From contig JAOAIL010000006.1 in assembly GCA_026414725.1 (NCBI GenBank), forward strand, positions 390-64,389: a stretch of 64,000 nucleotides of DNA. The letters run 5' to 3'. Within the stretch, counting starts at the first letter, position 1. Each line of letters begins with the position of its first letter. This document shows positions 1 to 63,325 of this stretch, piece by piece. The position numbers and the translations under genes are program-made. The notes under the pieces are model-generated. The model saw only the letters and a program-made list of their open reading frames with translations, ran no database searches and was not told the DNA's origin. Origin of the DNA: a bacterium (lineage in GTDB: Bacteria; Ratteibacteria; UBA8468; B48-G9; JAFGKM01).

Positions 1-680
1 ACATCCAATGATAAAGAAAACCTTCTTGCACCTGGTTGATGAAGATAACTTATTGTAGGATTTAAAGGAGTTAAATAAATCTCTCTCAAAACAGTCGTAT
101 AAACAAGCGCATTCCCAAAAGATATAAGTGCATTCAAAGGATTACCAGGTGGGTTTACAATTCTTTCTCCAAATTCCCAGCCAGTAATTTTTTCAAAACA
201 ACCATAATATAGTTTCCTTGTATGTGCCTCTAAACTCATAAGTTCTGGTATGGTCTTCGCCTTTTCTATTTCTTTCTCAAACTCCTCTATCTGTGATATT
301 TCTTTTTTAAAGTCCTCTCTTTTTTGAAGATTTCTTTTTATATTGTGTATGGCACCCTGAACAAAACATCTTGCAAGAACAATTCTTTTTGTTCCATCAA
401 GATAATGTGCTACTTGTCTGATTAAAAGGTCTCCTGAGAGATTTGTCTCGCGTGGGTAAAAAGTTCCAGAATAATATCCATAATAATTAAATATATGGAT
501 ACAGATACCATTCTGAGCGGAAAAATTTAAAAACTTATTATTGAAGTCAACTTCTCCAAAGACAAACAACTGGTCTATATTTTCAACTGGAATTGGCTTT
601 TTACCTTCCATTGTTTCAAAAAATATGGTGTTTTCTTTTCGCTTCAATACTCCATTAGAAAAGATATAATAGTTCTTCAT
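1..680 (-). CDS. cas1: CRISPR-associated endonuclease Cas1, 5'-complete and 3'-truncated by the window edge
   Basis: My own translation of the minus strand from the ATG at 680-678 gives MKNYYIFSNGVLKRKENTIFFETMEGKKPIPVENIDQLFVFGEVDFNNKFLNFSAQNGICIHIFNYYGYY with no stop down to position 1. This is the classic type I-B Cas1 N-terminus. The start overlaps the cas4 stop as ATGA. Confidence 0.85.
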   Translation of the reverse strand, partial: MKNYYIFSNGVLKRKENTIFFETMEGKKPIPVENIDQLFVFGEVDFNNKFLNFSAQNGICIHIFNYYGYYSGTFYPRETNLSGDLLIRQVAHYLDGTKRIVLARCFVQGAIHNIKRNLQKREDFKKEISQIEEFEKEIEKAKTIPELMSLEAHTRKLYYGCFEKITGWEFGERIVNPPGNPLNALISFGNALVYTTVLREIYLTPLNPTISYLHQPGARRFSLSLD

Positions 681-1192
681 ATATAACAGAGTTCAAAATA
701 TGCACAGTTTCTGCAATATGGTTTTTTTACTACCTCAGGTGGTTTAGATAGGTCCATTATCTCTTTAATATTCTCTTCTGCATTTTCTATATTCCTTCTA
801 TCTTCATCTTTTAAAATTACCTCTATTTTTTTCATCAATTTAGGGTAATGAATTATTCCTCTTGTACATTCTACTCCTGTCCTCTGGAGTTTATAGATGT
901 AGAACTTTGTCTGCCATATATGTGCTTCTTCAAGATTCCTTGATTTTTTGACTTCATTAACTATTATTTCATTTCCAATCCTGAGAAAATCCACTTTTAT
1001 TGTGTCTCCTAACATTATCTCTTTATACCCTTCTCTTTTAAATGAACTCTCACTTAATACTTTACCCATCTCAACAAAATCAGAAAATTGCTCCATTCCT
1101 AATCCATGTGAGAACAACCATAGTTTCCTTTTACACACAATATAATAAGCGATATGTGTTCCAGTAATTCTATAATTTAATAAATCTACCAT
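677..1192 (-). CDS. cas4: CRISPR-associated exonuclease Cas4 (RecB-like nuclease with Fe-S cluster)
   Basis: N-terminal YYIVCKRKLWL motif, QTKFY RecB motif, and the C-terminal CRNCAYFELC cysteine cluster. Confidence 0.85.
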   Translation of the reverse strand: MVDLLNYRITGTHIAYYIVCKRKLWLFSHGLGMEQFSDFVEMGKVLSESSFKREGYKEIMLGDTIKVDFLRIGNEIIVNEVKKSRNLEEAHIWQTKFYIYKLQRTGVECTRGIIHYPKLMKKIEVILKDEDRRNIENAEENIKEIMDLSKPPEVVKKPYCRNCAYFELCYI

Positions 1193-1198
1193 TAGATT

Positions 1199-3712
1199 TT
1201 AAATAATAATTGACTGTTCTTTTATTTTGTTTACCTTTAAAACCCAAATATTCTCAGAATAACTCCGTAATTTTCTACTTATTTCAACATCTTTCTGCAC
1301 TATTTTATCTTTTAAAATATTCCATAAAGTATCTATTATTTCCCGTTCTTTTATTTTCCATCCTGATAAATTTATTACATATTTAGCTATGATTTCCTTT
1401 TTAAACCAAAGCCAAGTAATGTCCAAATTATTTAGAATAGCATCATTTATTTTTTTAATTATTTCATTTTCATGTTCTGATTTTATTATTGACATAGAAA
1501 AAATCTCTCTAAATAAATTATGCGCTTCTTCTTTATACTCAGAAACATAGCCAGCGTTCAAAATTGATACTGTCTGAAAAAAAGTATTGATATACTCTGA
1601 ATTTTCTAAATTGTCATAAAGTCCTTCAACCAACTTTTGTTTCTCCTTTTCTGTAAAATTATTTTTATTTTTTAAAATTTCTAGGGTTCCCTTCAATAAA
1701 ATCTCTTCATATATCTTTCCTTTCCCAGATTCTATATATCCTTTTTCTTTTATATAATAGACATATATGTTTTTTTCATTTTGAGAATAATAATTTTCAT
1801 ATGTAAAAATTCTATTTGAATCTTTAATACTTCCTGTTAATACATTTACTCTCCTCATTATTCTTCCCATACGTTGAATCAAAGAATCCATTGGAGCAAT
1901 CTCTGTAAATAAATAATCTGCATCTATATCCAATGATGCTTCAATAACTTGAGTAGCAACAAGTATTTTAGATTTATTCTCATCTTCGGGTTTAGGATTA
2001 TTGAATTCTTCTTCCAGTCTTTTTTCCTTTTCCTTTCTTTCTTCTAATGTAAATCTTGAATGTAGTATATCAAGGTATATTTTTTGATCTTTAGTACTAT
2101 TTTTTATGTATTCATACATTTCCTCTGCTTTTTCAACAGTATTACAAACCACAAGAACTCTTTTACCTTTTTTAGATTTATCTATAATTTCTCTTATATC
2201 ATCTGTAATACTTTTATCTCGCAATTCTATCTTATGCCTGATAAGATCGTCTTTTATTTCAGAATAATAATTAATAATATCGCTATCCGATATGACATTC
2301 TTATCTTTCAAATAATTCTTTACAAAATTAGGAAGTGTTGCTGTCATCAATAAAAATTTACCACCCAGAGAAACAATATCTTCTATTAATTTTACTATCA
2401 TTGCACATGCTTTTGGATTATATGCTTGAACTTCATCTATTACTAATCTTGAATAGCCTAAAGTTGCATAAACTTTTTCGTATTGAGGGTATTTTAAAGA
2501 TGCAGGAAAAATCTGGTCTCCTGTACATATATTTATGGGTAAAGAAAAATGTCTTGAAAGGTCTAGAATTTTAAGTAGTTCCCCATCTATATCTTCTGTT
2601 GAATTGCTTGATTTTTCCACCAAATAAAGGTCTGCATCTGAATGTAAAAGTCCCACATTTTCATTTATGAAAGGGTCTTCTTCTTTAAAAATAGCAGCAT
2701 TTGATTGGTTTAAGTATTTAGAGATACGGTCAAATATTTGGTTTGTGGCACATCTTAAAGGAAGTGTATAAAAAAGTTTCTCATCCTCTGACCACAATAA
2801 AGCAAATTCTGTTTTACCAATACCTGTCGGGGCAATAAGAATCAAATTTTTGTTTTTAAAATTTTCAACCATATCTTTCTGCCAAAATTGTTTGCCAAAA
2901 TGTTTTTCTAATATATTCTCAATAATAGAAATTCTTTTTGTTTCCTTTTCAACTTCGCATAAAGTAATACCACGGTGTTCTTGCCTTTCTACAAATGAAG
3001 TAAAATGGTCTGCTCTTATTAAAAAGCCAGAAAGAAAAATCCACAGATTAAGGTCTATTTTCAATTCTATTTCCAGTTTTAATCTCTCTGGTAGAAAATA
3101 AAGAGTGTACGGAGGGATTATCCCAATACTGGTTAAATTACCCCCTTGAGAAATTTGTTTTACAATATGTTCATCAAATGAAATATAATCAGTTACGGCC
3201 AATCCATCTATTTTAAAATTAGAAAAAATTTTTTTTAGTTCTTCCGTAAGTGTTGCTCCATTACTATTCTTTAACAGAAATTCTGCTGTTTCTCTCAAAT
3301 CATTATTTATTTGCAAAAGATACTTTTTTTCGTCTATTTTCCAGTGATGAAAAGCAACAGCAGATAAAAATGTTGTATATAAACTTTCGCTATTTCTACA
3401 TATTGTCTTTACTTTTTCCTTGTCTATGAAGAACAAGGATAGAATATTGTGTCTTACATAAGGAAATTTATTATTGGAAGTCAGGGTATTGGTATTACCT
3501 ATCTTTTTCTGAAAAGAAGGCGATATTTTCCCAAGGTCATGAAAAAATCCAGCCCATTTAAGCAGATATTTTAAATAATACTCATCAATATTAGAACCGT
3601 TTTTAAAATTGCCATAGTTTAATTTATCTAAAGGTAGTTTTTCAATTGTTTTTATCACATCTTCAGTGTGTTTAATTAATAGTACTCCACTAGATTTTGC
3701 CCATATATCCAT
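1199..3712 (-). CDS. cas3: Cas3 fused HD nuclease plus DExH helicase
   Basis: N-terminal HD motif FFHDLGK, Walker A LIAPTGIGKTEFAL, DEVQ box. 837 aa. Confidence 0.9.
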   Translation of the reverse strand: MDIWAKSSGVLLIKHTEDVIKTIEKLPLDKLNYGNFKNGSNIDEYYLKYLLKWAGFFHDLGKISPSFQKKIGNTNTLTSNNKFPYVRHNILSLFFIDKEKVKTICRNSESLYTTFLSAVAFHHWKIDEKKYLLQINNDLRETAEFLLKNSNGATLTEELKKIFSNFKIDGLAVTDYISFDEHIVKQISQGGNLTSIGIIPPYTLYFLPERLKLEIELKIDLNLWIFLSGFLIRADHFTSFVERQEHRGITLCEVEKETKRISIIENILEKHFGKQFWQKDMVENFKNKNLILIAPTGIGKTEFALLWSEDEKLFYTLPLRCATNQIFDRISKYLNQSNAAIFKEEDPFINENVGLLHSDADLYLVEKSSNSTEDIDGELLKILDLSRHFSLPINICTGDQIFPASLKYPQYEKVYATLGYSRLVIDEVQAYNPKACAMIVKLIEDIVSLGGKFLLMTATLPNFVKNYLKDKNVISDSDIINYYSEIKDDLIRHKIELRDKSITDDIREIIDKSKKGKRVLVVCNTVEKAEEMYEYIKNSTKDQKIYLDILHSRFTLEERKEKEKRLEEEFNNPKPEDENKSKILVATQVIEASLDIDADYLFTEIAPMDSLIQRMGRIMRRVNVLTGSIKDSNRIFTYENYYSQNEKNIYVYYIKEKGYIESGKGKIYEEILLKGTLEILKNKNNFTEKEKQKLVEGLYDNLENSEYINTFFQTVSILNAGYVSEYKEEAHNLFREIFSMSIIKSEHENEIIKKINDAILNNLDITWLWFKKEIIAKYVINLSGWKIKEREIIDTLWNILKDKIVQKDVEISRKLRSYSENIWVLKVNKIKEQSIII

Positions 3713-3726
3713 TTTAATACTCCGGA

Positions 3727-4578
3727 TTAAATCATTTTACACAAAAAAAGAGGAATATTCATTTCAGTATCTGTTATAAATTCAAAAGGTTTTCCGAAAT
3801 AAAAAGGAAACTCACCTTGTTCAAAAAGTTTCACAGGGATATGTCTAAAATTTCGGAAACCATCTTCTATTTTATAAAGCCCTGTGACTAGATGAAAACT
3901 CCCTTTAATTTTTAAGAAGAACTCCTTATAGTCAACAGGATAAAAATCTTTTTCAAACCAATTAGGATATTCTTTACTTTTCTTATTTCGTGGTCTTGGG
4001 TCAGGAATCCAAGTATAATAGTATAACTTTCCATAAAAAGGTTTTTTATTATTTTTATCAATATCAACTATCCTTATTGCTTCCTCTGGACTATCTTCAA
4101 ATACAATCCAGTCCTCTGCTCTTCCAAGATGTAAAGGATAAATTCTATTTTGTGGATTGTTAAATACCTCCTTCAATTCTATGATGAATTTTTCATCACT
4201 ATGGTAAATGTAGATGATAAGGTTTACATTCTCTAAAACATCTATTCTCGTAGGTATCTGTCTTCCTGGATGTTCAGGAATTTGGTCCATAGTTCTATTT
4301 TGTATAGTAATAAATCTATTTCTGTGCGAATTTGCTGACAAGTTTCTTAGCCATATATATTCTTTTGTCATTGATTCAAACTTTCCATAAATAGCAAGAC
4401 CTAACTCTTTTAACTTAACGAACTTCTCATCATTTTGGTCTTTTATTCCGAGAACATTACATATAAGTCCTATAACAGTAGAATAAGGAGGAATGGGATA
4501 AGTATGCCTTCTAGAAAGAGTGAACGGAATTCTATAATGAACATGGGGTTGATAAATTTTTAATCTCAAAAATTTCAT
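3727..4578 (-). CDS. cas5: Cas5 (Cas5t/Cas5h-type) Cascade subunit
   Basis: N-terminal LTYPIPPYSTVIGLICNVLG-type Cas5 signature; position between cas7 and cas3. Confidence 0.8.
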   Translation of the reverse strand: MKFLRLKIYQPHVHYRIPFTLSRRHTYPIPPYSTVIGLICNVLGIKDQNDEKFVKLKELGLAIYGKFESMTKEYIWLRNLSANSHRNRFITIQNRTMDQIPEHPGRQIPTRIDVLENVNLIIYIYHSDEKFIIELKEVFNNPQNRIYPLHLGRAEDWIVFEDSPEEAIRIVDIDKNNKKPFYGKLYYYTWIPDPRPRNKKSKEYPNWFEKDFYPVDYKEFFLKIKGSFHLVTGLYKIEDGFRNFRHIPVKLFEQGEFPFYFGKPFEFITDTEMNIPLFLCKMI

Positions 4579-4618
4579 TTTAACTATTCCTGTATTTGGT
4601 AAATTCTTTTCTTAAGAG

Positions 4619-5560
4619 CTATTTAAATAACTCTTTTATAAATATATCCCATTTTGCATATGAGTGCTTTTCTATAAAATCTGAACTCATTGCATCTGGT
4701 TCTCGAGATTCAACAAAAGTTAAACTTTTTCCATTTATTTTTTCAATCCAACCATTAGATATTCCATTCTGCAGTAAATTCTCCCTAATTCTAAATTTTG
4801 GTCTATGATTTTCTTTATAGAATTCCACATCAACAAAGGAATGAAATATTGGAATAGGAATCTTTACGATACCTGAAATCAAAAATAAAGGCACAATGCC
4901 AGGACATTCTCCAGAAGAATGATAGTAAAGACCATTGTAAATAGAAGTCAATATGTCTAGAACTCGTCCCTCCTTTTCTTGGTCAGAAATAACCAATCTG
5001 CCACTATCATCGGTTCCTATTTTTTTCAAATCCAACGTAAAGGAGGTTTTATAAAGCGACTTATGTTCTTCAGGATTATATGGATTTGGTTCAAGTTTTG
5101 CATCTGGATATTGTTTAACATATCTTCTAACTAAATCATGATTCGCATAGAAAGTAATATCTCCTGCCCATGGTTCAAAAGAAATAGATTTTGTTATTCC
5201 TATAGCGGATTTCCTTGTAATCTGTTTTCCTTTCCCCTTTTTATTACCTTTTTTAGTTCCCATATATCCAAAAACATCAAGTTCAGCATACTCTTTAATA
5301 TTACCTTTTTTAAGATCAAATTGAATAACATTACCATTGGCTCTTGTAACGGGCGCTTCTTTCCATCTTTCTGGATTCATCCTGTTAAGTGTTATCCAGA
5401 GGTAATGTCTCATTGCAGGCCTTGAAATAAATGAATATGCTTCTCCCCAACCTCTCATAAGTTTCTTGATAGAAGGAATATTTCCTGCTACTTTTTCTCC
5501 TCGGTTAAGAGCATCTGCTTCAAAAATAATAGTAATGGTTATTGCTTCCTTAATCTTCAT
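4619..5560 (-). CDS. cas7: Cas7 (Cst2/DevR-type) Cascade backbone subunit
   Basis: ITIIFEADALNRGEKVAGNI N-terminal Cas7 signature. 313 aa. Sits in the canonical I-B position. Confidence 0.8.
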   Translation of the reverse strand: MKIKEAITITIIFEADALNRGEKVAGNIPSIKKLMRGWGEAYSFISRPAMRHYLWITLNRMNPERWKEAPVTRANGNVIQFDLKKGNIKEYAELDVFGYMGTKKGNKKGKGKQITRKSAIGITKSISFEPWAGDITFYANHDLVRRYVKQYPDAKLEPNPYNPEEHKSLYKTSFTLDLKKIGTDDSGRLVISDQEKEGRVLDILTSIYNGLYYHSSGECPGIVPLFLISGIVKIPIPIFHSFVDVEFYKENHRPKFRIRENLLQNGISNGWIEKINGKSLTFVESREPDAMSSDFIEKHSYAKWDIFIKELFK

Positions 5561-5870
5561 TTTGTTCCTCCTTTATATTTTTTTGTAAAGTTAAAATAGG
5601 GGCTAGGAATGAGAAAAGTAATGTTTTAAAGTATATTTCATTCTCAGGTTTAAATGCTTCTATAAGTTCTTCAGGAAATTTCTTTCCATTTGTCTTAAAC
5701 CATCTAAGTAGTATATAAAAGACATTATCTTTATTCTCGAGACGAATCTGTTCAAGTAACCTGAAAGCGATGTTATCTATTGATTTCAACTCCTCCTCGG
5801 ATGCTAATTGTCTACTTATTTCTTTTCCTTTTTCTTTTAAATTCCACATTAGTATGTCTATATTAGCCAT
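5550..5870 (-). CDS. Small (106 aa) protein between cas8 and cas7, a putative separately encoded Cas11/small subunit
   Basis: Overlaps the cas8 stop by 8 nt and the cas7 start by 11 nt, so it is translationally coupled. Size and position fit a small subunit. No recognisable motif. Confidence 0.45.
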   Translation of the reverse strand: MANIDILMWNLKEKGKEISRQLASEEELKSIDNIAFRLLEQIRLENKDNVFYILLRWFKTNGKKFPEELIEAFKPENEIYFKTLLFSFLAPILTLQKNIKEEQNED

Positions 5871-7008
5871 ATCCCACCTCCGTTTTTAAGATTTTCATTA
5901 TTCTTGTATATAATTCTGACAAAAGGAGTGAAATTTTATAAAGATTATTTATATCCATTTTACTTTCACTTATATACTTTTTTACTGGATCGTTTTCAGA
6001 AATCCTTTCCTTATTTTTTATTTTTAATAGAGTCCTTAAAATAAAATAGTTTGCCTTTTCAAGTTCTGAAAATTTTCCATCAAGAAGTAAATTAAAAATT
6101 TTTATTTCTCCAATTCTATCTATTAAATTAGCAATTTCATAATCAATTAATATTCTTGTTATGTGATAAGGTAAATCATAATAATCAATAATATTTTCCA
6201 ATTTATTATTAATTCTAACCCTTCTTTTAACTATCATTTCAATATTCATCATTGTCCAGGTTCCAAGTAGTGCTCTTCTTTTGACAATCCACTGAAGTAA
6301 GGAAGTAGCAAAAAGTTTTTTAATGTTATATTGTTCATCCTTGATAAAAAATTTTTCAATAAATTTATTTAAATCCCATGTAAGATAGAATAAAGAAGTA
6401 TTTATAAAAACATCTTTGTAAAAAGATAAATGATGAAAAATTACTAAATAAGAACACAGATGACATAATGGTGTTGAGGTTTTAAAGTTCCAGAAGGAAT
6501 TAGGCATTTCTGTAATGGCTCCTCCTAATTCTTTAATATGTATTCCTTGAAATACTTCTCTTTGAGAGATAAATTTAATAAATGAATCTTTATTCTTTTT
6601 ATATGAAACATTTGTTAAAAATTTACTCTGTAAATCATCTAATACTTTTTGAGGTAAGAAATGCCCACAACACCAATTACAGGATTTATTATTTATTCTG
6701 GGTTCAACAGAAGATAATTTTTTAATATATTCTTCCTTAAAAAAATCTTCTTGATTTTTTTGTATATAATTTGGATATCTTTTATTTTTTCCATATATTT
6801 TAAACTCTTCGTTTAATTCCTTTTTATGATATTGTACAAGCAATTTATAACTTTCTTCTAAAACCTTTCTTTCTATCTCAACACTCCCATCATTATTAAA
6901 TTGAAAAGTATTATTTTTCCCAGCGAATTCTAAAATTCGTAACAGGCCGACCACGCCTGCGTTATATAGCCAGTTAGAAGGGTAAAGTGTTATTTTATTA
7001 TTTGCCAT
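5863..7008 (-). CDS. cas8: Cas8 large subunit, Cst1/Cas8a1-like (cas_CXXC_CXXC family), type I-B Tneap variant
   Basis: N-terminal TLYPSNWLYNAGVVGLLRIL and two Cys pairs (CNWCCGH and CHLCSY), characteristic of Cst1. 381 aa. Confidence 0.7.
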   Translation of the reverse strand: MANNKITLYPSNWLYNAGVVGLLRILEFAGKNNTFQFNNDGSVEIERKVLEESYKLLVQYHKKELNEEFKIYGKNKRYPNYIQKNQEDFFKEEYIKKLSSVEPRINNKSCNWCCGHFLPQKVLDDLQSKFLTNVSYKKNKDSFIKFISQREVFQGIHIKELGGAITEMPNSFWNFKTSTPLCHLCSYLVIFHHLSFYKDVFINTSLFYLTWDLNKFIEKFFIKDEQYNIKKLFATSLLQWIVKRRALLGTWTMMNIEMIVKRRVRINNKLENIIDYYDLPYHITRILIDYEIANLIDRIGEIKIFNLLLDGKFSELEKANYFILRTLLKIKNKERISENDPVKKYISESKMDINNLYKISLLLSELYTRIMKILKTEVGYG

Positions 7009-7568
7009 TTTTTCTTTATCTCTTCTATTATTTTTAATGTTTTTCTATTAACATCAGGATAATCTTCTACAGAAAGAATTGCTCCAAGATATAGATTAAA
7101 ATCCTGCAAAGGAAACTTTTTTTCAAAATCGCTTTCTACTTTTTCTTTTTCCCACTTATATTTACTATAAAGGAATGCAAAATCCACCAAATCTTTTGTT
7201 TCAATTCTTCTTCCAGCAGAATAGATTTTGTTAATGAATATGTCATAATCAGAAGCCATTTTTATTCCGTCATATACTTCAAGTGGATTTATATTTTTAA
7301 AAGGGAAAAAGATAAAAGAAACTTTTATTCCTTTAATTATAAAGTCAATATTATCCACAAACTTTTCTTCTTTTTCCAGTACAAAAAATTTTTTTATTTT
7401 TGAGGATATTCTCATATAAGAAAATTCTTCCTCAGTAAGGAAATCAAGGTCTTCACTAATTCTATGATTATACTTAAACATTAATACAGTCCCACCTGCA
7501 AGATAGAAATTTTTGAAATTATTCTGTATCTCCCTCGCTATTTTTTTCATTTGTTCTGTTTTTTCCAT
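6990..7568 (-). CDS. Nucleotidyltransferase of the AbiEii/DUF1814 (type IV toxin-like) family, embedded in the cas operon
   Basis: N-terminal minimal-NTase motif FYLAGGTVLMFKYNHRISEDLDF matches the AbiEii LKGGTAL...R.SEDIDF consensus. Overlaps both neighbours. Confidence 0.6.
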   Translation of the reverse strand: MEKTEQMKKIAREIQNNFKNFYLAGGTVLMFKYNHRISEDLDFLTEEEFSYMRISSKIKKFFVLEKEEKFVDNIDFIIKGIKVSFIFFPFKNINPLEVYDGIKMASDYDIFINKIYSAGRRIETKDLVDFAFLYSKYKWEKEKVESDFEKKFPLQDFNLYLGAILSVEDYPDVNRKTLKIIEEIKKKWQIIK

Positions 7569-7819
7569 ATCTTTATCCAGAATTTTACTCCCCTTTTTAC
7601 TTCAGGGTATTTAAAAGCAATTTTGAAAGTTTCTTCAGGATATTGATAATAAATTTCTTTTATATCTTCAAAATTACCATAGGTGAGTATTCTTAATATA
7701 TACTTTTCAAGGACAACATCTTTTGCACAATCCCAGAATATACTTCTATATTTTTCAGGAATGTTTACTTTTTCTTTATATGTAATATTTATTCTTTGAG
7801 TTTTTCCTATGGTCTTCAT
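7547..7819 (-). CDS. 90-aa protein of unknown function, upstream partner of the NTase (possible antitoxin/adaptor)
   Basis: 6 nt after the cas6 stop, with a 22-nt overlap with the NTase gene. No recognised motif. Confidence 0.4.
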   Translation of the reverse strand: MKTIGKTQRINITYKEKVNIPEKYRSIFWDCAKDVVLEKYILRILTYGNFEDIKEIYYQYPEETFKIAFKYPEVKRGVKFWIKIWKKQNK

Positions 7820-7825
7820 CTTATC

Positions 7826-8572
7826 TCATAACTGTTTTATTACATCAATCATTCCAAAACCCTGGCCAGTTCTTACTCCTATCCCAAAATCATATAAAAA
7901 TTGCAATACTTCAGGATTCCCTTCAAGGGAAAAGCCACCTTTAAATCCTTTTGCATATCCACCAAAAACAGGAACTATTATTTCTGTTATTCTATAATCC
8001 GGTAGGATATTAAATTGTATATTACTTTTCAATGTTTTTCCTAAGATAGAACTATAACTTATTGCTGTTCTTTCATTAAATACTTCATTGAACTTCTGTA
8101 TGTTATCTTTTGAGGGAACTGTAAACCATTCAGAAAAGTTAGAAGGAGAAGCAGATGGGTCTGTCATTACTATTGCACCTATGGATTTACAAATAATCTT
8201 TGAGGAATTTATCCTACGCTGTGGGAGAAGTTGTATATTCTCAAGGACAAACTTTACTCCTTCAATTTCTATAAATGCATTCTCGTTCTTTTGAAGAGAT
8301 AGTATTCCATTCCAAAAGTGAGAAATTACTGAAATATCACCGGAAGAAAAAATGATAGATATATCAGGTCCTAAAATACCTTTCTCCCAGTTTAGCCCGA
8401 GAAATGGAGAATAGACATAGGGTTTTACCTTCTTGGTACTAAATAGTTCTTCGTATTCTAATTGTGAGGCGGTGGAGAATATCTTTTTAAGAAATGATAT
8501 GAAATACTTTCTGATGTCTTTATTCTTTTCTGTCTTTATAGAGTTGCCTTTCAAAATAAGAGAAAATCGCAT
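7826..8572 (-). CDS. cas6: Cas6 crRNA endoribonuclease
   Basis: MRFSLILK N-terminus and the C-terminal glycine-rich loop GVRTGQGFGMIDV. Confidence 0.8.
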   Translation of the reverse strand: MRFSLILKGNSIKTEKNKDIRKYFISFLKKIFSTASQLEYEELFSTKKVKPYVYSPFLGLNWEKGILGPDISIIFSSGDISVISHFWNGILSLQKNENAFIEIEGVKFVLENIQLLPQRRINSSKIICKSIGAIVMTDPSASPSNFSEWFTVPSKDNIQKFNEVFNERTAISYSSILGKTLKSNIQFNILPDYRITEIIVPVFGGYAKGFKGGFSLEGNPEVLQFLYDFGIGVRTGQGFGMIDVIKQL

Positions 8573-8652: not shown

Positions 8653-8925
8653 AGGAGAGGGTAAAAGACCAATCCCTCCCGTATTAGGGGGTGGGAAAAT
8701 AAGTGTGGGTAGAGAATAAAGCAACGGTTTCACCCTCACCCGTACCCTCTCCCCTCAAGGGAGAGGATATAGAATAAAGAATTGAGGAGAAAGTAAGGGA
8801 AGATTTCATTCCCACCCTGTTCTGACGGACTTAAGACACCCACCTCACCATCTCGGTGGGTGTGCTATACAATGTTCCTTACCCGTCGCACCAGCACCCA
8901 TCTCTCCTCAAGAGAGGGGAAATAA
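8653..8925. repeat. Composite GC-rich multi-hairpin intergenic repeat, including a reverse-orientation copy of the 95-nt module
   Basis: Contains CACCCTCACCCgtaCCCTCTCCCCTCAAGGGAGAGG and a 95-nt module at about 8806-8900. Confidence 0.8.
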
Positions 8926-29344: not shown

Positions 29345-29411
29345 CAATCTCCTCGTTTTAATTTAAAGAATAGGAAACTTTATTCCCCATATAAGGGGAA
29401 GGATATTAAGT

Positions 29412-29470
29412 GGGGGATAATAAAGGTCTCACCCTCACCCTGTCCCTCTCCCCTCAAGGGAGAGGGAAAC
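29412..29470. repeat. Single hairpin-a repeat unit upstream of the tRNA pair
   Basis: GGTCTCACCCTCACCCTGTCCCTCTCCCCTCAAGGGAGAGGG. Confidence 0.8.
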
Positions 29471-29484
29471 TAATTTATAATTTT

Positions 29485-29558
29485 GCGCCCATAGTTCAAC
29501 TGGATAGAACGTCGGGTTGCGGACCCGAAAGTTGCTGGTTCAAATCCGGCTGGGCGCA
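29485..29558 (+). tRNA. tRNA-Arg; anticodon reads GCG in my hand fold
   Basis: Cloverleaf: acceptor GCGCCCA/TGGGCGC, D-arm GTTC..GAAC, anticodon stem TCGGG/CCCGA with loop TTGCGGA, T-arm GCTGG-TTCAAAT-CCGGC. Confidence 0.65.
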
Positions 29559-29560
29559 CA

Positions 29561-29636
29561 CGGGGCGTGGCTCAGCCTGGTTAAGAGCGCTTGGTTCGGG
29601 ACCAAGAGGTCGGCGGTTCAAATCCGCCCGCCCCGA
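29561..29636 (+). tRNA. tRNA-Pro (anticodon CGG)
   Basis: C1:G72 acceptor, anticodon loop TTCGGGA, T-loop TTCAAAT. 2 nt after tRNA-Arg. Confidence 0.7.
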
Positions 29637-38817: not shown

Positions 38818-38909
38818 AACTCTTTAAAAATCTTAAAAAAGAGTAGATGGGTAGTATATATTTCACCCTTACCTTAATCCTCTCCCCTTAAAGGAGAAGA
38901 AATTAATTA

Positions 38910-41418: not shown

Positions 41419-41459
41419 TTTCACCCTCACCCATACCCTCTCCCCTCAAGGGAGAGGGA
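41419..41459. repeat. Single hairpin-a repeat unit between the convergent fucosidase and rmuC genes
   Basis: CACCCTCACCCATACCCTCTCCCCTCAAGGGAGAGGG. Confidence 0.8.
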
Positions 41460-47931: not shown

Positions 47932-47981
47932 TCTTATTTATTATATCACAACTAAATCATACTTGAATTCCCTTTGATTTT

Positions 47982-48180
47982 TCCCTCTTCCTTGAGGGGA
48001 GAGGGATGCTGATGCGATGGGTAAGGAATACCGTATAGCCAGCCGAGATGGTGAGGCGGGTGACCGAAGCCCGTCAGAGCGAGACAGGGTGAGACCTTCC
48101 TATACTTTTCCCCCTAATCCTTAACCTTCTCCCCCCATAGGGAGAAGGTAATTTAGGTATCTCCCCCTCATATGGGAAGA
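47982..48180. repeat. Composite GC-rich multi-hairpin repeat, including the 95-nt module (48003-48097)
   Basis: Hairpins CCCTCTTCCTTGAGGGGAGAGGG and CCTTCTCCCCCCATAGGGAGAAGG; GGTGAGACC. Confidence 0.8.
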
Positions 48181-52340: not shown

Positions 52341-52359
52341 GATGAAAAATTATTCTATA

Positions 52360-52455
52360 TCCTCCCCATACGAGGGGGGAGGAAACAGGTGGGGGTGGGA
52401 AGTGAAAGAAGGTCTCACCCCCACCCTATACCTCTCCTCTCAAGGGCGAGGGATA
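52360..52455. repeat. Composite hairpin repeat between pstS and arsC
   Basis: TCCTCCCCATACGAGGGGGGGAGG ... GGTCTCACCCCCACCC ... CTCTCCTCTCAAGGGCGAGGG. Confidence 0.8.
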
Positions 52456-52489
52456 GATTAAAAATTTTTTAACTTTAATGGTATAATAT

Positions 52490-53793: not shown

Positions 53794-54650
53794 GATATAC
53801 AAAAAACAGAATTATTGAAAAAGTATGGTTTTCAATAATATGCATATGTATCATTTTAACACTTCTATCACTCGGTTTGATATTGTATTTCATAACTATA
53901 AGAGGAATAAAAATCATTTCATTTGAATTTCTCACACAGATACCTGAAAGCGGTATGACAGAAGGAGGTATTGCCCCTGCTATTGTAGGCACGTTCTATC
54001 TTACATTAGGAGCAATAATCTTTGCTGTCCCTATAGGTGTTGGATGTGCCATATATCTGAATGAATACACTCCTAAAAATCTTGTGGTAAATATACTGAG
54101 AATTAGCATAAATAACCTGGCAGGTATACCTTCTGTTATATTTGGACTATTCGGACTTGCTGTTTTTGTTAAACTTTTTAATTTTGGTGTATCAATAATT
54201 TCTGGCTCTTTAACACTCGGAATTCTTATACTCCCTGGAATTATATCCGCTTCACAGGAAGCACTTATGGCAGTACCACAGTCATTAAGAGAAGCATCTC
54301 TCGCATTAGGAGCAACAAAGTGGCAGACAATAAGAAAGGTTGTTCTACCTGCAGGACTGCCCGGAATTCTCACAGGCGTTATCTTAAGCACAGGTAGAGC
54401 AGCAGGAGAAACAGCAGCCATTATGTTTACTGCTGCTGCTTTCTATGTAAAAAGTTATCCTAAATCTATATTTTCAGAGGTAATGGCTCTGCCCTACCAC
54501 ATCTATGGACTTATGACAGAAGGAATCTATCCTGAGAAACAGACACAGATTGCTTATGGCTGTGCACTTATCCTTATGTTCCTCGTGCTTTTTATATCAG
54601 CGATAGCAATATATTTCAGACAGAAACAAAGGAGAACCTACTATGGTTGA
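53790..54650 (+). CDS. pstA: Phosphate ABC transporter permease PstA
   Basis: Permease with REASLALGA motif. Confidence 0.9.
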
Positions 54651-55401
54651 AGTACAGATAAAAGTAGAAAACCTGAATTTTTACTATGGAAAATACCAAT
54701 GCCTTAAAAACATCAATATGGACATCTATAAAAATTCTGTTACTGCTATTATAGGACCTTCTGGATGTGGTAAGTCAACTTTTATCCGTCTTTTTAATCG
54801 TATGAATGACCTTATCCCTGGGACAAAAGTAGAAGGCGTAATATATCTTGATAAGGAAAATATACTATCACAGGAAACCGATGTTGTAGAATTACGAAGG
54901 AAGGTAGGTATGGTATTTCAAAAACCCAATCCCTTTCCTAAAAGTATCTTCAGAAATATATCATATGGACTTGAAATCCATAATATAAAAGATAAAGAAC
55001 TTATTGAAAAAAAAGTTAAAGAGGCACTTCAAAAATCAGCCCTGTGGGATGAGGTTAAAGACCGTCTCAATGATAGCGCACTTATGCTTTCTGGCGGACA
55101 GCAGCAACGATTGTGCATCGCGAGATGTCTGGCGGTAGAGCCAGAGGTAATACTCTTTGATGAACCCTGTGCAAGTTTAGACCCTATATCTACAAACAGA
55201 ATAGAAGAACTTATAACGGAACTTAAAAAAAATTATACTATTGTCATAGTCACACATAATATGCAACAGGCAGCGAGAGTATCTGATTATACTGCCTTTC
55301 TTTATTTAGGAGAACTGATAGAGTATGGACCTACAGAAAGAATTTTTACAGTACCTTCACATCCTAAGACAGAGGAGTATTTATCAGGTAAGTTTGGATA
55401 A
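54643..55401 (+). CDS. pstB: Phosphate ABC transporter ATP-binding protein
   Basis: Walker [10 protein letters not shown], signature LSGGQQQRL. Confidence 0.95.
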
Positions 55402-55423: not shown

Positions 55424-55655
55424 CTCCTACCCATATGAGGGGGAGAGACCTAAATTACCTTCTCCCTCGGGGGGAGAAGGTAAGGATGAGGGATAAAGTT
55501 TAGCAAAGGTCTCACCCTCACCCTGCCCCTCTCCCCTCAAGGGAGAGGGAAAACAGTTCCTCCCCATATGAGGGGGGAGGATATAGGTGGGGGTAGAGAG
55601 TAAAAGTAAAGTTCTCACCCTCCCCTTAATCCCCTCCCCTCAAGGGAGAGGGATA
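55424..55655. repeat. Tandem pair of composite hairpin repeats between pstB and phoU
   Basis: Hairpins b (CCCATATGAGGGGGAG), c (ACCTTCTCCCTCGGGGGGAGAAGGT) and a (CCCTCTCCCCTCAAGGGAGAGGG), twice. Confidence 0.85.
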
Positions 55656-55673
55656 AAACATAAGGAGAGAAAA

Positions 55674-56327
55674 ATGATAGAACAAGAGATACAGCGGTTA
55701 AAAGAAAGTATCATTGCTTATGCATCTTTTGTAGCGAGAATGATAGAAGAAAGTATTACAGGACTGCTTGAAAAAGATGAAAAAATATTGAAAAAACTTA
55801 TAGAGGAAGAAGAAACAAAAGCAAACCATACAGAGATAGAGATTGAAGAAATATGTATTGAGGCAATTGCGCGGTATGAACCGAAAGCAAAGAATTTAAG
55901 AACCGTCCTTATGATAATGAAGATTAACAACGACCTTGAAAGAATAGGTGATGAAGCAGTTAATATTGCAGAAGCATCCCTTTTTCTTATAAAAAAACCA
56001 GAGGTAAAAAAACTTATAGATATTCCTCGTATGGCAGATTTGAGTGTAAGGATGTTAAAAGATAGTATCCAGTCGTTTGTAACAGATAATTCTATGCTTG
56101 CCCGTGAAATATGCACAAGAGATGATGTAGTGGATAATTTAAGAGACCAGGTAATCAGAGAACTTTTAACCTATATGATAACAGACCCTGCAACTATAGA
56201 AAGGGCATTACAACTTATGAGGGTTGCACGCTCACTTGAACGGGTGGCAGACCTTTCAACAAACTTCTGTGAAGATGTGGTATTTATGGTTGAAGGGAAA
56301 AATATCAAACACCACGCAGAAGAATAA
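55674..56327 (+). CDS. phoU: Phosphate transport system regulator PhoU
   Basis: Two PhoU repeats. Start moved to the internal Met (MIEQE) because the upstream part of the ORF translates repeat DNA. Confidence 0.85.
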   Translation: MIEQEIQRLKESIIAYASFVARMIEESITGLLEKDEKILKKLIEEEETKANHTEIEIEEICIEAIARYEPKAKNLRTVLMIMKINNDLERIGDEAVNIAEASLFLIKKPEVKKLIDIPRMADLSVRMLKDSIQSFVTDNSMLAREICTRDDVVDNLRDQVIRELLTYMITDPATIERALQLMRVARSLERVADLSTNFCEDVVFMVEGKNIKHHAEE

Positions 56328-56378: not shown

Positions 56379-56394
56379 ATCACAAAATTGGAGA

Positions 56395-56570
56395 TAATAT
56401 CTCAGAGTGCCCGAGAGGGCTTAATAGGGAAGTGTCGCACTCACCAAGGTGAGGAGACGACTACGCTCCCGGCGCTGTAGGGCTGACGAAATTCCAAAAG
56501 CCACTGTCTGAAAAGACGGGAAGGTGGAAGAGTAGAATGAAGCCCAAGTCAGAAGACCTGCTCTGAGGAA
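56395..56570 (+). promoter_or_regulatory. Cobalamin (AdoCbl) riboswitch aptamer
   Basis: Blocks CTTAATAGGGAAG, GCCACTG...GACGGGAAGGTGG and B12-box-like AAGCCCAAGTCAGAAGACCTGC, in the same order as the E. coli btuB leader. Closing helix CTCAGAG/CTCTGAG. Confidence 0.7.
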
Positions 56571-56637
56571 TGGCGCAGCTTTTTCCTGCGGAGTACAGGA
56601 AAAAGGGTTTTTGTATTTTAGGCGAAGAAAACAGGGT

Positions 56638-56676
56638 GCAGCCCGCCATATATTTTGGCGGGCTTTTTTATTTCTC
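56638..56676 (+). terminator. Intrinsic terminator (riboswitch expression platform)
   Basis: GCCCGCCA-loop-TGGCGGGC followed by TTTTTTATTTCT. Confidence 0.7.
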
Positions 56677-56682
56677 AAACAA

Positions 56683-56920
56683 ATCCTCCCCATATAAGAG
56701 GGAGAGACATAAATTACCTTATCCCTATGGGGGAGAAGGTTAAGAGGGGGAAAGTATAGTGAAGGTCTCACCCTCACCCTGTCCCTCTCCCCTCAAGGGA
56801 GAGGAAAGAAAGTCCTCCCCATATGAGGGGGGAGGAATTAGGTGGGGGTGGAGAGTGTAAGCAAAGGTTTCACCCTCACCCTGTCCCTCTCCCCTCTAAG
56901 GGAGAGGGAAGGGGAGAGGG
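56683..56920. repeat. Tandem pair of composite hairpin repeats between the riboswitch terminator and the RNase HII-like gene
   Basis: Same b-c-a hairpin order. 56815-56875 is nearly identical to 57828-57888. Confidence 0.85.
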
Positions 56921-56935
56921 ATAATAAGGGATGCT

Positions 56936-57808
56936 ATGCCAGAGAAAAAAAGGATACTCGGGATAGATGAAAATGGACTTGGACCGCTTATGGGTCCTCT
57001 CGTCATTACAGGAGTCCTGTTAAGGTATGGAGGAAAAGACGTTTGGTTTGATGGTATAAGTGATAGCAAGGAATTTTTTTCAAGAAATATAGACAGGTTC
57101 TCACAATTAGAAGATACGGTTTTATCTCTTTTTTATCTTCTTGAAGGTAGAACACCTTCATCTCCAGTAGAAATACTTGAAAATTTCTGTGTAAAATATG
57201 ATTGTCTTTCCGGATTGAATATCTGCACCCGTAATATTCCGGATAGGTTTATATGGTCGGAAGGTAAAAAATGTGAAGAGTTGTCTGGATGGATGGGAAA
57301 GAATGGAATAGAGATAGAAAAGATACAATCAATTGCTCTATGTCCCAAGAGAATCAACAATTTTATAGAAAAGGGAGACCATAAATTCCTGCTTAATCTT
57401 TCTGCATTCTGCGATATTATAAAGAACCTCCCTGATAAAAATATGCTCTCTGTATATGCAGGCAGGGTTGGAGGATTAAAATTTTACAAAAAATATCTAA
57501 CTTATTACCTTTATGACTATCAATGTGAAACTATTGAAGAGAAAGAAGATGTCTCCTTATACCGGATGGAAGGAGATAATGAAACATTCACAATGGGCTT
57601 TTACACAGATGTAGAGAAGAAATCCTTTCCTGCTGCAATTGCATCAATTATAGGGAAATATATTAGAGAGTTATTTATGGCAGGTATACGGAAAACTCTC
57701 GGGATATCAGAAGATATCTCCGGCTATCATGACAGGAGAACAAAAAAATTTGTCCCTTCCATCTCCCCTGAAAGGTTTCCTTCAGATTGTATCTTCCGCT
57801 CAAAATAG
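56936..57808 (+). CDS. Divergent RNase HII-like protein with a large Cys-containing insertion
   Basis: RNase H2 motifs GIDENGLGPLMGP (GIDEAGRGP), GISDSKEF (DSK), and AAIASIIGKYIRE (ASIxAKxxRD, with E in place of D). 290 aa against about 200 for canonical RnhB. Confidence 0.55.
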   Translation: MPEKKRILGIDENGLGPLMGPLVITGVLLRYGGKDVWFDGISDSKEFFSRNIDRFSQLEDTVLSLFYLLEGRTPSSPVEILENFCVKYDCLSGLNICTRNIPDRFIWSEGKKCEELSGWMGKNGIEIEKIQSIALCPKRINNFIEKGDHKFLLNLSAFCDIIKNLPDKNMLSVYAGRVGGLKFYKKYLTYYLYDYQCETIEEKEDVSLYRMEGDNETFTMGFYTDVEKKSFPAAIASIIGKYIRELFMAGIRKTLGISEDISGYHDRRTKKFVPSISPERFPSDCIFRSK

Positions 57809-57819
57809 TATAAAGAGAA

Positions 57820-57930
57820 ATCCTCCCCATATGAGGGGGGAGGAATTAGGTGGGGGTGGAGAGTGTAAGCAAAGGATTCACCCTCACCCATCCCCTCTCC
57901 CCTCAAGGGAGAGGGATGGGGAAAGGGGAT
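57820..57930. repeat. Composite hairpin repeat
   Basis: TCCTCCCCATATGAGGGGGGAGG ... GGTGGGGGTGGAGAGTGTAAGCAAAGG ... CCCTCTCCCCTCAAGGGAGAGGG. Confidence 0.85.
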
Positions 57931-57976: not shown

Positions 57977-58005
57977 TTGACAAAAATATAGATAGGTATT
58001 AAAAT
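57977..58005 (+). promoter_or_regulatory. Sigma70-type promoter (TTGACA, 17 nt spacer, TAAAAT), with RBS AAGGAGG ahead of the ferredoxin gene
   Basis: Consensus hexamers. Confidence 0.5.
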
Positions 58006-58049: not shown

Positions 58050-58238
58050 ATGAAAGTGAGAGTTGATGAGTCACTCTGTACAGGGTGTGGTTTATGTGTA
58101 GATATTTGCCCTGAGGTATTTGAGATGCCTGAGGCGGTCTCTATCGTAAAATCCCCTGTGGTCTCAGGAGACCTTGCTGACAAGGTCAAGGAGGCAGCAG
58201 AGAGTTGCCCGGTAGAAGCGATTATCATTGAAGAATAA
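58050..58238 (+). CDS. fdx: Single-cluster 4Fe-4S ferredoxin
   Basis: CTGCGLCVDICP ... CP motif. 62 aa. Confidence 0.85.
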   Translation: MKVRVDESLCTGCGLCVDICPEVFEMPEAVSIVKSPVVSGDLADKVKEAAESCPVEAIIIEE

Positions 58239-58247
58239 CTAAAATAT

Positions 58248-61836: not shown

Positions 61837-61936
61837 TTAATACCACCTCTATAGAATAATATAAAAAAGAGATTTATTCCCTATATGAGATTATTATATA
61901 TTCTTTCCTCACCCTAATTCCTATCACCCAAAAATT

Positions 61937-62275
61937 CCTACCCATATGAGGGGAGATACCTGAATTACCTTCTCCCTATGGGGGGGAGAAGGTTAAGGAT
62001 GAGGGGGAAAAGTGTAGCAGAGGTCTCACCCTCACCCTGCCCCTCTCCCCTCTAAGGGAGAGGGGAAAAGAAGAAAATCCTCCCCATATGAGGGGGGAGG
62101 GTGCTGGTGCGACGAGTAAGGAGCAACGTATAGCACAGATGGCGAGATGGTGAGCCCGTTGACTGAAGCCCGTCAGGGCAAGAACAGGTGGGGGTGAAGA
62201 GTATAGAAAAGGTCTCACCCTCCCCTCTGAGAGAGGGGAAACTTAACAGAACCTATCTCCTCAAGGGAGAGGAAA
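61937..62275. repeat. Composite hairpin repeat cluster with the 95-nt module (62099-62200)
   Basis: b-c-a unit, then hairpin b fused to the module, then two more degenerate hairpins. Confidence 0.85.
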
Positions 62276-63081: not shown

Positions 63082-63325
63082 ACCCTCTCCCTTGAGTGGA
63101 GAGGTTCTATTAATTCTCCTCTCCCTTAGAGGGGAGGGGATTAAGGGGAGGGTGAGACCTCCGATGTACTTTTCCCCCTCATCCTTAACCTTCTCCCCCA
63201 TAGGGAGAAGGTATTTTAGGTATCCCCCTCATATGGGGAGGATTTCTTATTTACCCTCTCCCTTGAGGGGAGAGGGTTAGGGTGAGGATGAATACCTGTT
63301 TTAATCTTCATCCTCACCCCTTAAA
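63082..63325. repeat. Composite hairpin repeat cluster in reverse orientation, plus a perfect 13-bp inverted repeat
   Basis: CCCTCTCCCTTGAGGGGAGAGGG twice, CCTTCTCCCCCATAGGGAGAAGG, GGGTGAGACC; GGGTGAGGATGAA...TTCATCCTCACCC. Confidence 0.85.

Follow-up and report, generated by a model that had tools for sequence, protein, structure and literature searches.

Intergenic hairpin arrays of a Ratteibacteria-related bacterium as probable members of the BoxC/PIT/TM_ECO class of intrastrand triplex motif repeats

The spacer between pstB and phoU in the 64-kb stretch of host DNA that we analyzed (hereafter, the window) holds an array of GC-rich hairpins, and such arrays recur in other spacers, raising the question of which kind of repeated element they represent. 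A sequence-only reading of the window had filed the family under MITEs or REP/RAYT elements. We compared the arrays with these and with other repeat classes, using the 64 kb of the host genome together with fragments of related genome(s).

Composite arrays in the spacers of the window

GC-rich hairpin arrays are found in 11 intergenic spacers of the window, with none expected by chance, and repeat finding grouped copies into families at all 11 places that the sequence-only reading had listed, the one at 38859-38909 being degenerate as claimed. Together, the arrays amount to 1,872 nt, or about 29% of the 6.5 kb that are not covered by long ORFs. All copies of the window lie between ORFs, most of which have Pfam support, in agreement with the earlier claim that the elements are always intergenic; the counts and the spacer location thus bear out a repeated, non-coding intergenic family. 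The GC content of the window is 0.355, as had been estimated (about 35%), and that of the arrays 0.42-0.59 (0.53 for the focal array), lower than the 60% or so previously given. The arrays generate spurious ORFs rich in proline, serine, glycine and glutamate.

Hairpin a (CCCTCTCCC-N5-GGGAGAGGG) has 12 matches in the window at up to two mismatches, against 0.02 expected, and hairpin b (CCTCCCCATATGAGGGGGGAGG) has 5 against 0 expected, so that both recur as claimed. Hairpin c is present at four sites (48124-48149, 55458-55480, 61967-61993 and 63188-63212); a search with the 4-nt loop that had been ascribed to it returned no match because its true loops measure 5-7 nt. In a census of perfect GC-rich hairpins over the window, all belong to the repeat family except a riboswitch terminator at 56640-56664. 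Copies within the window are 65-85% identical to one another, and some are decaying. We also considered a CRISPR reading of the arrays, which was rejected, as their spacing is not regular; no CRISPR array was found anywhere in the window.

The arrays are built from modules with a common plan, namely an all-pyrimidine arm of 7-10 nt (Y), a loop of 3-8 nt, a complementary all-purine arm (R), a short linker, usually of 3 nt, and a third strand composed of G, T and A, which mirrors the purine arm and lies 3' of the hairpin on one strand or the other. The sequence GGTCTCACCCTCACCCTG, earlier described as a leader before hairpin a, turns out to be the complement of this third strand and thus more than a flank. 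The window holds at least 19 triplex modules, whose triplets were counted. Modules are joined as inverted pairs, with one triplex motif per strand and the third strands pointing inward; where module a is paired, its partner is always b or c, and a solitary a is also seen (41419-41459). Two composite units are found, U1 (b'-c-a, ~128 nt) and U2 (b-a, ~100 nt), often in tandem as U1-U2, so that the fixed order b-c-a proposed earlier holds for the five copies of the first unit and not for the second. The five U1 copies align from a common first base, TCCT(A/C)CCCATATGAG, and their upstream flanks are unrelated. Judging from the sequences, U1 and U2 have been copied as blocks into intergenic spacers. 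The c-a and b-a pairs also fold as interrupted hairpins of ~45 bp (dG -53 to -68 kcal/mol, z -3.4 to -4.8); according to these predictions the triplex is not the sole fold allowed, as arms and tails would also permit ordinary long hairpins. The coordinates of all features are collected in Table 1.

Table 1. Repeat arrays of the window, modules of the focal array and its flanking genes
Feature	Positions	Strand	Basis or remark
Focal array, pstB-phoU spacer	55425-55653	+	
U1 (b'-c-a), first half of focal array	55425-55553	+	Alignment of five copies
Module b', degenerate b-type hairpin (TCCTACCCATATGAGGGGGAGAGA)	55425-55448	+	Repeat family D8
Module c: Y CCTTCTCCC, loop 5, R GGGAGAAGG, linker 3, third strand GGATGAGGG	55458-55492	+	9/9 valid triplets
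Module a: CCCTCTCCC-TTGAG-GGGAGAGGG-GCA-GGGTGAGGG	55515-55549	-	Exact TM_ECO/BoxC pattern; 9/9 triplets
U2 (b-a'), inverted pair of triplex modules	55557-55653	+	~45-bp interrupted hairpin, dG -56.2 kcal/mol, z -4.8; families D4, D5
Module b: Y TCCTCCCC, loop 8, R GGGGAGGA, linker 3, third strand AGGTGGGG	55558-55592	+	8/8 triplets
Module a', imperfect a-type: TCACCCTCCCC-TTAA-TCCCCTCCC-CTCAA-GGGAGAGGG (letters of the + strand)	55611-55652	-	Family D2
pstB, 5' flank of focal array	54643-55401	+	PstB, PF00005; synteny with relatives
phoU, 3' flank of focal array	55674-56327	+	PF01895; Shine-Dalgarno AAGGAGAG between array and ATG
Array: b-like, a, X, a-like; divergent spacer between cas6 and a dihydroorotate-dehydrogenase-type gene	8653-8925	+	
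b-like + module a; 18 nt 5' of two tRNA genes (29485-29636)	29399-29467	+	Exact TM_ECO pattern 29432-29466 (-)
Degenerate a-type copy	38859-38909	+	Family D2, 69% identity
Solitary module a, convergent spacer	41419-41459	+	Exact TM_ECO pattern 41424-41458 (-)
Reverse U1, X nested between tail and hairpin of a; adjoins start of a - strand gene; site empty in L002	47978-48180	-	
U2, pstS-LMWPc spacer; a-type half decaying	52359-52455	+	
U1-U2 array between cobalamin-riboswitch terminator and next ORF; absent at this site in L001	56684-56922	+	
U2 copy: b 57821-57855 (+), a 57881-57915 (-)	57820-57927	+	
U1, then b module with inverted X between hairpin and tail, then degenerate a-like hairpins; convergent spacer	61935-62275	+	
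Reversed array a-b'-c-a'-a'', 5' of a - strand cytidylyltransferase gene	63082-63325	-	

An extra module of ~110 nt, X (...CTGACGGGCTTCGGTCA.C.GGCTCACCATCTCG...CCTTACCCGTCGCA.CAGCA), occurs in the window at 8800-8925, 47978-48100 (-) and 62076-62206 (-) and in the related loci L028, L029, L031, L044, L045, L046 and L051. In the three window arrays and in the related genome, X without exception interrupts a triplex module between tail and hairpin, in a constant relative orientation. X is not homopurine/homopyrimidine, and an Rfam search with it gave no match.

The window has several other features close to arrays. A cobalamin riboswitch (Rfam, 94.8 bits; region 56388-56935), with the terminator mentioned above, is followed by a 240-nt array and then by an ORF (56936-57808) whose similarity to RNase HII is confined to the first 47 residues of the latter; in the relative L001, the riboswitch leads directly to a prepilin-type N_methyl protein, then to BtuF/FecCD-like genes. 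A 62-residue ferredoxin-like ORF (CxxCxxC...CP motifs), below the length limit of the ORF list, lies at 58051-58239, with a near-consensus, promoter-like site upstream (57977-58005). Defence genes occupy the left end of the window on the minus strand (677-8572), namely Cas4 (677-1192), an AbiEii toxin (6990-7568) and Cas6 (7826-8572), with large unannotated ORFs between them.

A pairing rule that ties the third strand to the stem

We tested the relation between stem and third strand without bias, on hairpins picked by their pyrimidine-to-purine stem alone in the window and in the STE_142 loci (272 distinct hairpins). A third strand was sought 0-8 nt from the hairpin, on either strand, as a segment that runs antiparallel to the purine arm and pairs with it in G*G, A*A or T*A triplets. 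All triplets are valid in 210 of the 272 hairpins, and at most one is missing in 252, while complete cases number ~4 in controls with shuffled flanks and ~5 when tails are swapped between stem types, with a maximum of 11. The third strand covaries with the stem in a three-way manner (Y, R and third strand) over 28 distinct combinations, for example GGGAGAGGG/GGGTGAGGG, GGGAGAAGG/GGATGAGGG and GGGGAGGA/AGGTGGGG, or, among the further pairs, AAGGAAGG/GGATGGAT and AAAGGAGGG/GGGTGGATT. Since the copies form families related by descent, the independent evidence consists of these 28 combinations and not of the 272 copies. T is used in the third strand by 22 of the 28, so that the C-rich complement would rarely be a valid pyrimidine motif. 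Among asymmetric stems, the mirror rule fits 200 and the direct-repeat rule 99, and pyrimidine-to-purine hairpins number 274 against 18 with the reverse arrangement. In unrelated metagenome contigs, the rule is obeyed by 29 of 47 hairpins other than the stem used for the search, against 0.6 expected. As a mirror relation cannot come from templated copying, this covariation suggests that selection acts on Hoogsteen pairing at the DNA level.

BoxC/PIT/TM_ECO repeats became known some thirty years ago. BoxC, the PIT element (a rediscovery) and TM_ECO (the latest name) are one and the same repeat, which is described as a class II purine-motif intrastrand triplex (Holder 2015, PMC4666352; Hoyne and Maher 2000, 2002 as cited there). 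Its pattern is 5'-CCCTCNCCC N3-6 GGGNGAGGG N3 GGGNGAGGG-3'; it was reported from 262 proteobacterial genomes, with 23 copies in MG1655 that are always intergenic and that form inverted pairs of two types at five sites (PMC4666352). The motif loci of E. coli vary more than control loci, their strand orientation is without bias, triplex repeats were not found on transposons, phages or plasmids, and no function has been assigned (PMC4666352). In the window, the exact pattern occurs seven times against 0 expected; module a conforms to it, and modules b and c fall outside it. Exact matches also occur in Ratteibacteria STE_142, in an Omnitrophota MAG, at more than 90 metagenome loci and in E. coli. 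A 26-base pattern from module a is present in more than 120 metagenome contigs, whose GC content is 0.40-0.68 and whose flanks are unrelated, and the module-a pattern in replicons of Azospirillum, Sinorhizobium, Klebsiella and Enterobacter and in 4,613 of 5,426 E. coli genomes, the hrpB-mrcB spacer of E. coli holding a matching inverted pair with identical arms and third strand. By these matches, module a is not specific to the lineage. A literature search with the exact module sequence gave no match, and the link to the published family was made through the E. coli occurrence.

Taken together, these results make it likely, from pattern and pairing rule, that the repeats of the window belong to the BoxC/PIT/TM_ECO class of intrastrand triplex motif repeats, copied as composite blocks. 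In the proposed mechanism, one DNA strand would fold back twice, first into a Watson-Crick hairpin and then with the third strand laid onto the purine arm, antiparallel and via G*G, A*A and T*A reverse-Hoogsteen contacts, giving a class II purine-motif triplex. The selected form would be folded single-stranded DNA, exposed in replication, transcription or repair, and the fold may be required for copying by a trans-acting machinery that is not encoded in the element. The isolated strand of the E. coli motif was reported to form a stable triplex in vitro by CD and NMR, and no triplex signal was seen with the double-stranded motif or in DMS footprints in vivo (PMC4666352). A more far-reaching version of this proposal is speculative, and we consider it rather unlikely: that the family gives the first evolutionary evidence of a DNA triple helix being itself selected in cells, its elements inserting into or acting on one strand of transcribed DNA and spreading via single-stranded DNA by means of an enzyme that recognizes a triplex in place of a hairpin.

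Turnover in relatives, strand polarity and competing explanations

The PstB protein of the window shares 90% identity with its counterpart in Candidatus Ratteibacteria STE_142 and 84% with Omnitrophica proteins, and we compared syntenic contigs of three relatives, L060 (93% PstB identity), L001 and L002. The pstB-phoU spacer measures 272 nt in the window, against 12 nt in L060, 18 nt in L001 and 15 nt in L002, indicating that the focal array is a gain private to the window lineage. Likewise, the purS-response-regulator spacer is filled in the window (47978-48180) and empty in L002, and an array separates the riboswitch terminator from the next ORF in the window, where L001 has none. In the pstS-LMWPc spacer, hairpin a is intact in L060 and decaying in the window (52411-52461), and L001 and L002 have other hairpins there. 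Such decaying copies beside perfect ones suggest a birth-death turnover rather than a function kept at each site. The earlier description of the element as active or recently active is doubtful, as the copies are only 65-85% identical and some are decaying. At phoU, the ribosome-binding region reads AAGGAGAG in the window (55654-55673) and GTGAGGTG in the array-less L001 (3647-3664) and L060 (2985-2996), a difference suggesting that the insertion was accompanied by a change in the phoU translation start signals.

The sequence-only reading had made its case depend on copies elsewhere and on the arrays not being assembly artefacts. The exact 22-mer of hairpin b is found in 50 stretches of one related Ratteibacteria genome, many of them near contig ends; the family is thus abundant elsewhere, and it is not an artefact of assembly. 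A match of this 22-mer in Dehalococcoidia, within a GC-rich ORF, was set aside as due to chance. In STE_142 (L008-L059), about one-third of the contigs with hairpin b end within ~250 nt of it. The arrays thus seem to break short-read assemblies of the lineage, many contigs of the related MAG ending in them. In L001 (5640-5760, 6760-6950) and at many STE_142 loci, an AT-rich insert (AGAGGGGATTTTTAGGTTTAGTGTTTTGGATTTAGAGTTTATT) interrupts the third strand of module b. A direct duplication of ~14-15 nt (TATAGGTGGGGGTGG) flanks the insert, and longer variants are nested inside it.

The orientation of the arrays follows that of the genes. In co-directional spacers of the related genome, the sense strand carries the b-type triplex in 29 cases and the template strand in 1 (p = 6e-8; 38 vs 2 in a first count by copy), each subfamily having its own fixed strand. 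Arrays flip with gene direction within one contig of 7.5 kb, and in the window that at 61935 is forward and that at 63082 reversed; as these flips occur within a few kb, polarity tracks transcription and not replication, and a replication-linked polarity was rejected. Under the triplex proposal, the polarity could arise because elements insert into a single strand of transcribed DNA, or because copies in the opposite orientation are lost. Module a shows no bias in mixed metagenome loci (20 sense, 25 antisense), where ORF calls are unreliable in GC-rich DNA, and the polarity may be a peculiarity of the lineage with a cause unrelated to the triplex. A one-way terminator, also considered as its cause, fits the window but not the related genome, in which b has no A-rich flank on its 5' side.

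A more general role in RNA, in which the hairpins would act in operon transcripts as stabilizers, processing sites or one-way terminators, would account for the fixed orientation (29 vs 1) and for the presence of arrays inside operons. It draws further support from five window copies in which hairpin b, read antisense, is followed by a T-rich tail, reversed arrays showing the same on the opposite strand, with no hairpin and T-run on the sense strand, and from the pstS-LMWPc spacer, where three relatives each have a different hairpin-forming sequence. Among the sense strands of forward arrays, only the riboswitch terminator qualifies as an intrinsic terminator. However, the third strand obeys a purine-motif rule with frequent T, a motif that RNA reportedly does not form (PMC4666352). 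On the sense strand, mismatched stem positions are C.A in 17 cases and U.G in 8, so that G.U wobble is not enriched, and the related genome, in which the polarity was measured, lacks an A-rich flank 5' of b and hence the antisense T-run. In E. coli, PIT motifs had neither promoter nor terminator activity (PMC4666352). Searches against Rfam 15 with gathering and E-value thresholds gave no family at threshold, the repeats having only sub-threshold resemblance to miRNA precursors or Whalefall-1. We regard an RNA-level role as an unlikely explanation of the family; it may be a secondary effect and not the reason that the family exists.

Mobility of the kind known for REP/REPIN elements, in which inverted-pair palindromes are mobilized as single-stranded DNA by a single-copy RAYT (an IS200-like Y1 HUH enzyme) encoded elsewhere in the genome, would fit the inverted doublets that fold as long hairpins, the strictly intergenic sites, the sharp ends without target duplication and the coexistence of several subfamilies, all of which are shared with published REPIN descriptions (PMC3337134). 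Yet the GTAG or CGTC tag, a defining feature of REP (PMC3733652), is absent, with GTAG/CTAC lying within 8 nt of only 7 of the 272 hairpins and CGTC/GACG of none. A six-frame scan of the window and of ~0.38 Mb of repeat-bearing loci, crude and run on incomplete genomes, gave no HUH...Y (Y1) candidate, and no transposase, integrase, reverse transcriptase or Y1_Tnp was found by Pfam among the 40 ORFs of the window. Moreover, the mirror relation between tail and purine arm is not predicted by REPIN models. Enterobacterial repeat surveys list BoxC, the E. coli counterpart of the module, apart from REP/BIME. A REP/REPIN origin is therefore quite improbable, and descent as MITEs from a DDE-type insertion sequence is far less probable still. 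Short, repeated units that have no coding capacity and that differ in insertion between relatives would fit this descent, and in some metagenome contigs module a sits inside a separate repeat. But the array ends consist of hairpin arms only, with no terminal inverted repeats beyond them, a search for target-site duplications at the flanks of seven arrays found none, and there is no transposase among the 40 ORFs scanned in the window. No recurrent neighbor protein was seen either, the ORFs within 2.5 kb of module a at 120 metagenome loci belonging to housekeeping families only, and no copying intermediate or target motif was found. The original filing under MITE or REP/RAYT is thus not supported: by their defining features, the family is neither REP nor MITE.

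The separate repeat just mentioned is ~140 nt long, with inverted ends CTAGTG(T/C)CTGGTCAA and module a at its center, and was seen in L063, L083, L089, L092, L099, L169 and others (FWWM01/FWPU01), on contigs of about 50% GC. It looks like a true MITE that captured a triplex module.

Comparison with known repeat classes

For the preferred BoxC/PIT/TM_ECO reading, the lineage amounts to a natural experiment, in which many variants keep the three-part pairing rule at very high density and in sharp-ended composite units. It also offers empty sites in relatives and a transcription polarity that is missing in E. coli, so that one can test whether selection acts on the triplex, and which strand takes part and when.

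Among known systems, the mirror repeats of H-DNA have in common with these modules the homopurine/homopyrimidine tracts, the mirror symmetry and the Hoogsteen pairing. In H-DNA, however, a duplex donates one strand, whereas here all three segments are on one DNA strand, which folds back twice. REP/BIME/REPIN elements are likewise short, GC-rich extragenic palindromes in transcribed spacers, with inverted doublets, mosaic arrays and several families per genome; unlike them, the present family has no GTAG/CGTC tag, no RAYT was found for it, its arms are strictly homopyrimidine then homopurine, and its tail mirrors the purine arm, a relation without a role in REP models. MITEs such as Correia (Neisseria) and ERIC/IRU are also intergenic, co-transcribed units of 100-150 nt that differ in presence between genomes, but terminal inverted repeats with target duplications, and a parent insertion sequence, are lacking here.

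The closest agreement is with BoxC/PIT/TM_ECO. Module a is exactly the published pattern, with class II purine-motif geometry in both cases; both are intergenic, occur singly or as inverted pairs of two different types (type A with type B in E. coli), have no linked transposase and differ between close relatives in the loci they occupy. The differences are of host, density and organization. TM_ECO is proteobacterial, whereas the host of the window belongs to an uncultured candidate phylum (near Ratteibacteria) and has 35.5% GC; 64 kb of its DNA hold 7 exact matches and at least 19 triplex modules, against 23 copies in the 4.6 Mb of MG1655. The window also has the lineage-specific modules b and c, with many more such modules in the relative, each with a matching third strand, and its modules are joined in composite units that were copied as a whole. 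Finally, the polarity relative to transcription is strict here and absent in E. coli, a difference that does not exclude membership. The view that the arrays are a dense, lineage-diversified colony of an already known repeat class is thus well supported.
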